Source: Candidatus Woesearchaeota archaeon
Lineage (GTDB): Archaea > Nanobdellota > Nanobdellia > SCGC-AAA011-G17 > UBA489
DNA: 33,785 nucleotides
NCBI GenBank assembly: GCA_964367575.1
Contig: CAYIYF010000001.1
Span: 1 to 33,785, forward strand
Reading direction: 5' to 3'
The notes below the pieces were generated by a model. That model saw only the letters and a list, made by a program, of their open reading frames with translations. It searched no databases and was not told the DNA's origin. A program made the translations under genes and the position numbers. Positions 5,058 to 30,890 of the stretch are shown here, piece by piece. Every line of letters starts with the position of its first letter. The first letter of the stretch is position 1.

Positions 5058-5088
5058 AAAAACAGGATGAGCCGAGGAATACCTGAAC
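5058..5088 (-). pseudogene. fragment copying the 3' end plus trailer of tRNA-Val (compare 8576..8606)
   Basis: aaaaacaggatgagccgaggaatacctgaac against aaaaaccggatgagccgaggaggatttgaac: 26 of 31 identical by hand alignment, same orientation. The T-stem is destroyed, so it is not a functional tRNA. Confidence 0.6.
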
Positions 5089-5172
5089 GTTAAAGGTTCA
5101 AGTCCTTCCTGGTTTTATTCAGTTCTCTCCTCATGACACAATCTTTTTATAATTGCCTCTTTTCTTTTTATC

Positions 5173-8433: not shown

Positions 8434-8585
8434 ATTAAATTAAAATATTTATTTACTATTTAAAGACTTCTTTTTTAGAATGTTTTTGCTTGATAAGTGC
8501 ATCGAATAAAACTTCCGCAAGAAAGTTAATTTTAATTTATAAACCGGTTCAATTTGGAAACGGTATATATAACCCAAAAACCGGA

Positions 8586-8690
8586 TGAGCCGAGGAGGAT
8601 TTGAACCTCCGACCCATACCTTGTAAGGGTATTGCCATCTGCAGGGCCTCAAACATTGTCTTAAAGACCTAACCGCTAGGCCACCGGCTC
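8586..8690 (-). tRNA. tRNA-Val(UAC) with a 32-nt non-canonical intron in the D-loop (intron 8639..8670)
   Basis: Hand fold of the minus strand: acceptor GAGCCGG/TCGGCTC, anticodon arm ATACC-CTTACAA-GGTAT, T-arm GGAGG-TTCAAAT-CCTCC, discriminator A. Total 105 nt against 73 nt expected. BHB: central helix GCGG/CTGC, 3-nt bulges TTA and AGA, 6-bp inner helix GGTCTT/GAGGCC. The spliced product is 73 nt. Confidence 0.7.
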
Positions 8691-9410
8691 GAATTCTACT
8701 ACCTTGCCATCATAATAATCTCTTAAAAACCTTTCCATCTCTTTTGATCTTGGAACGTGGCCTGTAAGTGTAAAAACATCAAATTTGATGATATGCTTTT
8801 CATTTGAACTTCCAATTTTGTCAAAATAATTCTTGACATTATCAGCGCCATAAAAGAAGATAGCTTTCTTTGAGTGACTAAACTTCATTCCTAAGGCTAT
8901 GAATCCCTCAACTGCAGATTCTAGTAATGAAGGTATCTTTATTGTCAAATCAGTCATTATTTTCGCATTTGGATGTGGACAGACACTTCCATCAGTGTCG
9001 TGCATTCCTTTGAGGCATCGTTTGAGAAGTTTAGGATTAGAAAAAAAGTATTCAGGGATTGTTATCCGCGCTGCTTTTTTATTTCCTAAAGGAAAACCGC
9101 ATTTATACATAAACTTTACAATTTTACGATTATAGATGATACATCTCGTTACTCTTCCTTGAGTACCATAGCTTGGATAAATTTTTGGCGTAATTCTAAA
9201 CAATCTGTTAATTAATTGTGGAACATAGACAGTAATATACTCCTTATCGAGAAGAGCGTCTGAACTAATATTAAGGCCATTTCCGTTAGAATATAAACAA
9301 CCATCTCCTAGCATTATCCCATAGAATTCCGCAAAATCTTCGCTTTTAACATCAGGAAGAACTCCTTCGTTTTCCTTAAATGCACCATTATTATTACGAG
9401 AAAGTCCCAT
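8676..9410 (-). CDS. double-motif LAGLIDADG homing endonuclease, free-standing
   Basis: Two LAGLIDADG motifs: FYGIMLGDGCL and LKGMHDTDGSV. TATA-like TTTAAATA about 25 nt upstream of the ATG. The last five codons plus stop (GAGCCGGTGGCCTAG) are the first 15 nt of tRNA-Val. Confidence 0.8.
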   Translation of the reverse strand: MGLSRNNNGAFKENEGVLPDVKSEDFAEFYGIMLGDGCLYSNGNGLNISSDALLDKEYITVYVPQLINRLFRITPKIYPSYGTQGRVTRCIIYNRKIVKFMYKCGFPLGNKKAARITIPEYFFSNPKLLKRCLKGMHDTDGSVCPHPNAKIMTDLTIKIPSLLESAVEGFIALGMKFSHSKKAIFFYGADNVKNYFDKIGSSNEKHIIKFDVFTLTGHVPRSKEMERFLRDYYDGKVVEFEPVA

Positions 9411-9504
9411 TAACTTTTATTAAAAAGAATATTTAAATCACTTCCCCGCACACCCAGTAAGTGCGATAAGTGCCTTTTTATATTTGAAAAGTTAATATAT
9501 TATT

Positions 9505-9660
9505 ATGCTCTCCAAAAAAAGATGCCCCAAGTGCGGAAGCTCTGAAATAGATTTTTATGCCGGAGCCTTAACTGGGGTCTACCACTGCAAGAGATGTGGT
9601 TATGTAGGGGCCATAATCATTGAAGAGGACGACCCATTATCAAAAGAAAAAAGATACTAG
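9505..9660 (+). CDS. 51-aa zinc-ribbon mini-protein
   Basis: Hand translation: MLSKKRCPKCGSSEIDFYAGALTGVYHCKRCGYVGAIIIEEDDPLSKEKRY*, with CxxC...CxxC. Confidence 0.45.
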   Translation: MLSKKRCPKCGSSEIDFYAGALTGVYHCKRCGYVGAIIIEEDDPLSKEKRY

Positions 9661-9719
9661 ATGGCAAAAAGATCCAGAATAAGTGAAAAATATTTAAACA
9701 AACCAATCAAAGTTTTTTA

Positions 9720-10727
9720 ATGCTCATAAAAAAAGTAGACAGAGATCTTGCAAGAATTGTAAAAAAGATAGGCAACTCTCATTTCAACCCAATAAATGCA
9801 AAAGATGAGATGATTAAAACATTTAATGATAATAATTACAATCCAAAACTCAAGTACCTTCCTCAAAATAAGAACATTGAAAGTATTGATAAAAAATTGC
9901 TTGCACTAAGAACTGACAATAGTGTTTTTGGAATGCTTTTGAAGAAAAAAATAATTGAACTGCATAACATATTTCTTATGATCAAGAACACTGGAAAAGA
10001 AGGATTTACTGAATACTCGATAAAAGTCTATGGAGCACCAAAACCAGAACTAGTAAATGAAGCTAGAAAAATATTAAAAATAGATGAAGAAGAGGTGTGG
10101 ACAAAATACTCAAGACTTTCAATGACAAAAGCTTTTTCTGACCATTTCAAAATAAATAAACTTGACTGGAAAATAAAAGAAAAGGAGATGGTTGCTGGTG
10201 CTGCAATTGATTCAAAAAGAAAATCGTTGATAATAAACAAGAATAAGGATTTCAGCGAAAATGATGTCAAAAGACTTATGATCCATGAGATAGGAACACA
10301 TGTGACAAGGTTTGAAAATGGAAAAAAGCAAAAACACAAGATGTTTTCCTTTGGCTTTCCAGGATATCTTGATACTGAAGAGGGGCTTGCTGCCTACAAT
10401 GAATATCGTGCAGGACTGCTTTCTCCGAAGATATTAAGGATGTATGCCGGAAGAGTTCTAGCAAATGACATGGCATTAAAAAGCAGCTTCAGTGTGGTAT
10501 ATAATACTCTGCTTGAACACTTTACAAGGTATGATGCGTGGACATTGGCATTAAGATCAAAAAGAGGTTTAAGTGATACCTCAAAGAAAGGAGGGTTTAC
10601 AAAAGATCATCTTTACCTGAAAGGATTTTTAAAAGTCAAGGACTTTGCTGAGAAAGGCGGGGATATGAAGAAGCTTTATACTGGAAAAATTGGTGTTGAA
10701 CATGTTCCTTATCTAGAGGATATTTGA
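9720..10727 (+). CDS. DUF1704-family (QEGLA-motif, tyrosine/phenylalanine carboxypeptidase-like) metalloprotein
   Basis: LMIHEIGTHVTRFENG (HExxH) followed by TEEGLAAYNE (the family's xEGLA motif). Confidence 0.55.
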   Translation: MLIKKVDRDLARIVKKIGNSHFNPINAKDEMIKTFNDNNYNPKLKYLPQNKNIESIDKKLLALRTDNSVFGMLLKKKIIELHNIFLMIKNTGKEGFTEYSIKVYGAPKPELVNEARKILKIDEEEVWTKYSRLSMTKAFSDHFKINKLDWKIKEKEMVAGAAIDSKRKSLIINKNKDFSENDVKRLMIHEIGTHVTRFENGKKQKHKMFSFGFPGYLDTEEGLAAYNEYRAGLLSPKILRMYAGRVLANDMALKSSFSVVYNTLLEHFTRYDAWTLALRSKRGLSDTSKKGGFTKDHLYLKGFLKVKDFAEKGGDMKKLYTGKIGVEHVPYLEDI

Positions 10728-30816: not shown

Positions 30817-30890
30817 AGCCACCGAGGGGATTTGAACCCCCGACCTATGGTTTACGAAACCATCGCTATACCGAGCTAAGCCACGGTGGC
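30817..30890 (-). tRNA. tRNA-Thr(CGU), intronless
   Basis: Hand fold of GCCACCGTGGCTTAGCTCGGTATAGCGATGGTTTCGTAAACCATAGGTCGGGGGTTCAAATCCCCTCGGTGGCT: anticodon loop TTCGTAA. Confidence 0.85.

Follow-up and report, generated by a model that had tools for sequence, protein, structure and literature searches.

How does a tRNA-Val(UAC) gene in which 58 nt precede the anticodon stem, where about 26 would be expected, give rise to a normal tRNA, and exactly which bases would have to be removed? The gene lies in the window analysed here, a 33,785-nt stretch of DNA from a Candidatus Woesearchaeota archaeon (CAYIYF010000001.1 in GCA_964367575.1; contig C1 below), which belongs to a 604-kb assembly of 69 contigs that is 81.6% complete. 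Its sequence and comparison with related genes make it highly probable that this is a functional tRNA-Val(UAC) gene with a BHB intron at position 20a/21 that is spliced by EndA and RtcB. Directly observed are the sequence anatomy, the endA and rtcB genes and the comparative support for this precise junction; transcription, cleavage and ligation are inferred. Both the type and the position of the intron are already known, and the case is a well supported but ordinary one.

The gene occupies 105 nt of the minus strand (8690->8586) and reads GAGCCGG UG GCCU AGCGGUU (AGGUCUUUAAGACAAUGUUUGAGGCCCUGCAG) A UGGC A AUACC CUUACAA GGUAU GGGUC GGAGG UUCAAAU CCUCC UCGGCUC A, followed by UCCGGUUUUU. Its assignment to tRNA-Val(UAC) in a preliminary description of the window proved correct, and all of the elements listed there are present at the coordinates given, including a clean acceptor stem (GAGCCGG/UCGGCUC), anticodon arm (AUACC-CUUACAA-GGUAU) and T-arm (GGAGG-UUCAAAU-CCUCC), as well as the 58 nt counted 5' of the anticodon stem. 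The gene and its predicted splicing motif comprise the following features.

8671..8690, minus strand: exon 1, with the acceptor 5' strand, U8 and G9, the D-stem 5' strand GCCU, and D-loop residues A14, G15, C16, G18, G19, U20 and U20a

8639..8670, minus strand: the 32-nt BHB intron AGGUCUUUAAGACAAUGUUUGAGGCCCUGCAG, drawn from the fold, the excision scan, BHB enumeration and same-site introns in ~85 other species

8586..8638, minus strand: exon 2, with A21, the D-stem 3' strand UGGC, A26, the anticodon arm, the variable loop GGGUC, the T-arm, the acceptor 3' strand and the discriminator A73

8623..8625, minus strand: anticodon UAC

8573..8585, minus strand: 3' trailer UCCGGUUUUUGGG with an oligo-U run

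8673..8676, minus strand: exon strand of the BHB central helix, GCGG (G15 C16 G18 G19), pairing with 8641..8644

8641..8644, minus strand: intron strand of the central helix, CUGC, with one G-U pair

8670..8672, minus strand: 5' bulge UUA (U20 U20a / A), with a predicted cut after the second bulge base, by the geometry of the canonical Arg(GCG) intron

8638..8640, minus strand: 3' bulge AGA (A G / A21)

8645..8669, minus strand: inner helix h', GGUCUU (8669..8664) paired with GAGGCC (8650..8645), and its 13-nt loop

Exon 1 is collinear with intron-less orthologues, CCA is not encoded at the end of exon 2, and the oligo-U trailer is likely to act as an archaeal terminator. In Sprinzl numbering the junction is 20a/21, within the D-loop; excision of 8638..8669 would yield the identical product, an A being repeated at both junctions. 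The spliced tRNA retains all stems and the conserved tertiary positions (U8, A14, G15-C48, G18, G19, U54-U55-C56 and A73).

The intron boundaries proposed earlier, 8639..8670, have held up: they give the top-ranking excision and the sole motif that can be drawn as a strict BHB, they match the orthologues, and they are supported by covariation. Four independent lines of evidence converge on them, namely the genome's own tRNA-Val(GAC), the orthologues, an excision scan and BHB enumeration. As had been described, the tRNA left by their removal is 73 nt long and has GCCU-AGCGGUUA-UGGC as its D-arm, with a U13.U22 mismatch, and an equal loop is found both in tRNA-Val(GAC) and in intron-less orthologues. 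In the Val(GAC) gene (C25:8798-8870), the D-arm reads GUCU-AGCGGUUA-UGAC, with U13.U22 as in the proposed product. For tRNA-Thr(CGU) at 30817..30890, to which the same mismatch had been ascribed, the Rfam alignment confirmed a non-standard 13-22 pair. Comparison with related tRNA-Val genes showed that, in 43 genomes from the order to which this archaeon belongs, the intron-less Val(UAC) gene matches the spliced D-arm, U13.U22 included, and reads GUGGUCUAG(Y)GGYUAUGRYR, that is, a D-loop AG(Y)GGYUA followed by UGRY-R. BLAST similarity to several intron-less Val(UAC) genes begins exactly at precursor base 53, the first base of exon 2. In the excision scan, all single excisions of 25-39 nt in the 5' half of the gene were scored against a profile of eight intron-less Val(UAC) genes, and removal of bases 21-52 (equivalently 22-53) ranked first, with 66.7 bits against 62.8 for the runner-up.

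All three candidates for the D-stem 3' strand that the preliminary description listed (AGGU, AGGC and UGGC) are present. In a table of 84 genes, the D-stem pair 11-24 is C-G in this genome alone and U-A in the 83 others; because C11-G24 is a compensatory double change, UGGC is the D-stem 3' strand rather than AGGU or AGGC, and the double change points to selection on pairing. Splicing elsewhere, either directly after AGGUC (about 25/26, with AGGU as the D-stem 3' strand) or with AGGC and a second excision, is extremely unlikely. AGGU and AGGC can each pair with GCCU, and ARAGORN takes several of the alternative products as tRNA-Val(tac), accepting spliced candidates without discriminating between junctions. 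Against this, the alternative junctions score at least 4 bits lower against the intron-less orthologues, no BHB brackets them, the D-loop of all 43 intron-less orthologues is AGYGGYUA, with UGRY-R next to it, the C11-G24 change favours UGGC, and the covariation described below favours the helices that bracket 20a/21.

Routine tRNA searches missed or misread the locus. The gene was not found by default ARAGORN and was called Leu(aag) by ARAGORN -i, and the Rfam tRNA model matched only 8650..8586 (32.6 bits). A custom Val(UAC) covariance model aligned the same segment, and both models took intron bases as an acceptor strand; for the 3' strand of the D-stem they used UGGC. As neither bridges the 32-nt insert, the models leave the intron unplaced.

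The helices, bulges and inner helix of the BHB drawn in the preliminary description were all found, and the helices also form when the 105 nt are folded to minimum energy without constraint (-40.4 kcal/mol, z = -2.5; 4/200 shuffles fold equally well). Enumeration of strict hBHBh' motifs with introns of 10-70 nt gave a single one in the 105 nt (h of 3 bp, bulge of 3, H of 4 bp, bulge of 3, h' of 6 bp). Its cuts would fall after bases 20 and 52, and it is the sole strict BHB in the gene whose excision leaves a tRNA. The strict register requires h to be formed by A14-U22, U13.G23 and C12-G24 (3 bp), together with the 6-bp h', and in a nearest-neighbour model it is ~5 kcal/mol costlier than the D-stem register GCC/GGC (-31.6 versus -37.0 kcal/mol), in which the 3' splice site lies inside a 2x4 internal loop, a point against the splicing model. 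The geometry is validated by tRNA-Arg(GCG) of the same genome, since the same enumeration recovers its canonical 37/38 intron. However, the tRNA-Leu(GAG) gene on contig C7, which is uninterrupted, also yields BHB-like motifs by chance, so that a BHB in a single sequence is weak evidence by itself and the case is carried by the comparative data. As a side candidate, a box C/D guide RNA within the 32-nt intron was considered and rejected, as inspection by eye revealed neither box C (RUGAUGA) nor box D (CUGA).

A survey of one genome per prokaryote species, using a pairing-blind pattern that looks for Val(UAC) genes in which 18-48 extra bases separate G19 from U22, returned 95 stretches, corresponding to ~88 distinct genes with an insert at the 20a/21 site. 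Their hosts are Woesearchaeota, Nanoarchaeota, Aenigmatarchaeota, Thermoplasmata, Methanomassiliicoccales and several bins labelled Methanosarcinales, and Val(UAC) is interrupted at this very site in ~85 other species of DPANN and Thermoplasmata. When the inserts were parsed by fixed offsets from the exons, 74 of 89 genes showed full pairing of G15-Y16-G18-G19 with the 4 nt that precede the 3 nt plus UGRY. Position 16 and its partner covary across these 89 genes (U:A in 37, C:G in 33, U:G in 13, mismatched in 6), and the bulges are mostly YUA/YUU and ANA. A formal pair count was made on 84 distinct composite rows, with shuffles and with partners slid by 1-3 columns as controls. Paired cells amounted to 93.4%, compared with 76.0 +/- 0.9 in shuffles (0/500 of which reach 93.4%) and 27-59% with slid partners; the covariation score was 0.553, compared with 0.087-0.152 for slid partners. 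The position 16 pair is U-A in 35 of these genes, C-G in 31 and U-G in 12, and the four closing pairs of the inner helix all show double-sided changes. The preliminary description had called for experimental or covariance support for the splice position; the BHB covaries across these 84 distinct genes. A tRNA that keeps the insert and works with a 40-nt D-loop extension has scarcely any probability in the light of these data: selection maintains a splicing motif, with two bulges 4 bp apart and a covarying intron side, while the same-site inserts range from 15 to 45 nt and have no conserved sequence. The insert would also sequester G15-G19, which the mature tRNA fold needs for contacts between the D-loop and the T-loop.

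Within the order, a strict Val(UAC) pattern matched 60 of 240 genomes, distributed as follows.

13 genomes: Val(UAC) with an intron at the 20a/21 site

4 genomes: Val(UAC) with a D-loop intron elsewhere, after A14-G15

43 genomes: Val(UAC) without a D-loop intron

All six matched congeners are without the intron, and in another genus it is present in three of four species. The site therefore recurs but is patchily distributed, which is the usual picture for non-canonical introns of archaea. Val(UAC) is interrupted at other positions in five relatives, at L005 (G015), L012 (G020), L283 (G014), L282 (G196) and L011 (G017); four of these have inserts of 47-52 nt directly after A14-G15, with similar CUUUUU...AAAG hairpins, and in G017 and G020 the Val(UAC) gene carries inserts in the T-loop after UUCAAA. 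The exons of the gene studied here are identical at 63 of 73 positions to those of a gene from another family (G034), the intron of which is about half identical to this one, and at 56-60 positions to the other genes compared, among them those of the congeners G003 and G007 and of two genomes from another genus of the same family. We draw no conclusion on horizontal transfer from these values, as the sequence is too short and the spread of identities too small.

The interrupted gene is the only tRNA gene in this incomplete assembly that could read GUA and GUG, codons that together occur 24 times per 1000 (255 long ORFs) and make up ~39% of valine codons. The preliminary description had named an unexpressed locus together with a further tRNA-Val(UAC) as a finding that would count against it; BLAST and regular expressions for the stem-loops and the 5' end detected neither a second Val(UAC) nor a Val(CAC) in the 81.6%-complete assembly, and Val(GAC) was the sole other valine tRNA. 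Default tools leave the genome without any tRNA for GUA or GUG. Near-identical copies of Val(GAC) are located at contig ends (C25:8798-8870 and C8:1-55, the latter truncated), probably reflecting an assembly break at a repeat or a strain variant. Other interrupted tRNA genes were miscalled by ARAGORN -i (C8:6007-6110, C8:8170-8307, C8:9215-9335, C44:2230-2346 and C24:1323-1430); the first of them, Thr(UGU), has a ~30-nt D-loop insert after A14-G15, and several, e.g., C8:8170-8307 and C44:2230-2346, apparently contain more than one insert.

The genome encodes both enzymes required by the proposed mechanism. EndA (C41:3030-3557, locus L031) is a 176-aa protein with matches to PF01974 (1.2e-30) and PF02778 (1.8e-11). 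Its best relative of solved structure is the catalytic alpha subunit of N. equitans (3IEY_A, 8.8e-34), and it aligns collinearly over its full length with the alpha4 enzyme of M. jannaschii (1A79, 1.1e-30; residues 7-176 versus 2-171). RtcB is encoded on contig C31 (PF01139, 9e-175). Exactly one endA gene of ~180 aa was found in 28 of 30 relatives searched (among G001-G035), one of which is a single-contig genome; tblastn and Pfam searches detected no second (beta) subunit, although a very divergent one could escape them, either in this genome or in those 28 relatives. A single alpha4-like endA thus coexists in this lineage with an abundance of D-loop, T-loop and multiple tRNA introns.

Splicing would then proceed as follows. 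A precursor of 105 nt or more would be transcribed, in which G15-C16-G18-G19 would pair with CUGC at the 3' end of the intron while the 5' part of the intron forms the 6-bp stem of a hairpin. The result would be a BHB, with a 3-nt bulge on either strand and 4 bp between the two. EndA is predicted to make one cut per bulge, on the 3' side of U20a and of the final intron G, and RtcB would ligate the exons; the resulting 73-nt tRNA would have GCCU-AGCGGUUA-UGGC as its D-arm. The predicted spliced junction is GCCUAGCGGUU/AUGGCAAUACC, i.e., AGCGGUU joined to AUGGCAAUACC, and CCA would be added after ligation.

One point against a functional gene is that the tRNA lacks a clean promoter: an ORF that overlaps it by 15 nt takes up the 735 nt upstream.

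8676..9410, minus strand: LAGLIDADG-like ORF of 244 aa, adjoining tRNA-Val(UAC) and not part of the tRNA

Its final five codons and stop (GAG CCG GUG GCC UAG) coincide with tRNA positions 1-15. MATCAP-like and Zn-ribbon genes stand beside the tRNA in both this genome and a congener (window 9410-9720 compared with L021 of G003, 1240-1480), with the following spacing.

Congener G003: 52 nt from the Zn-ribbon gene to the tRNA; Val(UAC) intron-less

This genome: 812 nt from the Zn-ribbon gene to the tRNA, 735 of which are the LAGLIDADG-like ORF; Val(UAC) intron-bearing

Judged by this comparison, the ORF was inserted between the Zn-ribbon gene and the tRNA at their ancestral locus. A strong TTTAAATA box is located ~20 nt before its ATG, and because of this box the tRNA may be co-transcribed with the ORF, or it may use a weak internal box. 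The locus could also be a decaying or silent pseudogene, with a junk insert, a promoter lost to the inserted ORF and the decoder of GUA and GUG in the unassembled 18% of the genome. The assembly is indeed incomplete, and the ORF parts the tRNA from the region that holds the promoter in congeners. Nevertheless, this explanation is very unlikely: the stems and conserved tertiary positions of the spliced tRNA are intact, the insert retains a complete BHB of a type conserved in ~85 species, the D-stem shows a compensatory double change that implies selection on pairing, no other decoder was found in the assembly, and the layout of ORF followed by tRNA is kept in three other, distant genomes. A functional, spliced tRNA-Val(UAC) gene remains the preferred reading.

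The 244-aa translation contains the LAGLIDADG-like motifs MLGDGCL and MHDTDGSV and has no Pfam match even at E = 10. The only solved structures that it matches, weakly (E = 1e-4), are the V-ATPase chains 7qsu and 7qss, which we take to be intein constructs. An iterative profile search of loci collected around tRNA genes gathered a family that includes the window ORF (8676-9410, minus strand) and ORFs at L003 784-1470, L054 425-1366, L068 5592-6554, L119 4031-4768 and L101 5745-6359. Nearly all members within ~1.5 kb of the query tRNA gene directly abut a tRNA gene, lying on the same strand upstream of it or converging on its 3' end. Two long ORFs farther away also match the family and depart from this pattern. 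Clades of the family tree track the adjacent tRNA and the orientation. Four members upstream of an intron-bearing Val(UAC) cluster together (support 92/95). Another two, one of them from Aenigmatarchaeota, converge on an intron-bearing Val(UAC) and make up a separate clade (99/98). The same genome has two paralogues, each beside a tRNA gene: one (C24:3648-4253, minus strand) adjoins tRNA-Met and the other (C8:8579-9217, plus strand) lies between two interrupted tRNA genes.

Might the intron and the LAGLIDADG-like gene travel as one mobile unit? In such "collaborative homing", the putative free-standing endonuclease would cut intron-less tRNA-Val(UAC) alleles, the D-loop intron would split the target and protect the linked copy, and repair from the donor would copy gene and intron together. 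Within the order, direct abutment on Val(UAC) was seen for 3 of 13 intron-bearing genes versus 0 of 43 intron-less ones (one-sided hypergeometric probability of 0.01, calculated by hand on relatives that are not independent). In the wider sample, it was seen for 6 of ~88 intron-bearing versus 0 of 119 intron-less genes, a comparison confounded by taxonomy. Of the 88 introns, the closest to this one comes from a locus where the same gene likewise lies upstream. The insertion of the ORF relative to the congener, the lack of the intron in all six matched congeners and the clade of the four upstream members also speak for the idea. Against the idea, most intron-bearing genes have no LAGLIDADG-like neighbour, and the family also occurs beside intron-less tRNAs (Gly-GCC and Arg-CCU). 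We regard a joint mobile unit as unlikely. To our knowledge, collaborative homing has never been shown for archaeal BHB tRNA introns. If real, it would offer a DNA-level route for BHB introns into tRNA genes and address how archaeal tRNA introns are gained. The analogy is with the collaborative (trans) homing of endonuclease-less phage group I introns by a neighbouring free-standing endonuclease (PMC6083498, PMC2790892). In both cyanophage F-CphI/psbA (PMC6083498) and T4 mobE/I-TevIII (PMC2790892), as here, a gene with a short, ORF-less intron has an endonuclease-like gene as its neighbour rather than within it; those introns, however, are self-splicing group I introns in phages, whereas here the gene beside the putative endonuclease is a cellular tRNA gene and its intron is of the archaeal BHB type.

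A second copy of the tRNA-Val 3' end and trailer, CCUCGGCUCAUCC(U/G)GUUUUU, is found 3.5 kb downstream in the same orientation (window 5058-5095, minus strand). From its sequence, the repeat pair looks att-type, bracketing a metzincin-like cassette; the ORF list and a Pfam scan revealed no integrase-like gene between the repeats.

The preliminary description had called the D-loop a non-canonical intron position. It is, but the position is less unusual than was implied there, because it is already documented: 20/21 is listed among the known non-canonical positions of tRNA introns (PMC4090602). In Asgard genomes, tRNAscan-SE is reported to miss D-arm inserts more often than any other class (2026 preprint 10.64898/2026.10.13.758758). 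The literature that we searched contained no description of a recurrent 20a/21 site in Val(UAC) of ~85 species of DPANN and Thermoplasmata. Because the same Val(UAC) site is interrupted in so many other uncultured archaeal species, the tRNA sets of metagenome-assembled DPANN and Thermoplasmata genomes are probably under-called at this position. A covarying D-loop BHB intron in a genome with a seemingly single alpha4-like EndA also bears on how the substrate breadth of EndA relates to its subunit type. Counting against the splicing model, the literature regards alpha4 enzymes as having a narrow specificity, and a D-loop BHB intron was hardly cleaved by an alpha'2 enzyme (PMC3241643); however, alpha4 enzymes with an extra loop have been reported in DPANN lineages rich in disrupted tRNAs (PMC5829648).

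A close precedent comes from Aeropyrum pernix, whose pre-tRNA-Thr2(UGU), likewise an otherwise normal elongator tRNA, carries a BHB intron in the D-loop. This intron is transcribed, removed and cut by purified EndA; EndA alone removes it in vitro, without guide RNA or other factors (PMC3241643). A. pernix, however, is a crenarchaeon with an (alpha-beta)2 EndA that has a Crenarchaea-specific loop, whereas the present intron is in a different tRNA of a DPANN archaeon with a single alpha4-like endA. The 20b/21 intron of Methanopyrus kandleri pre-tRNA-Glu(UUC) occupies nearly the same site, just before A21, and there too the exon region around G18-G19 forms one strand of the motif (PMC5829648). 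It differs in having a relaxed HBh' motif, in belonging to a gene with two introns and in being cut inefficiently by the organism's own EndA (PMC5829648), while the Woesearchaeota gene has a single intron and both 3-nt bulges. In a broader sense, the intron resembles those of Thermoproteales, Nanoarchaeota and ARMAN (PMC4090602): protein-spliced BHB introns outside 37/38 that are patchily distributed in close relatives and hidden from simple tRNA finders.
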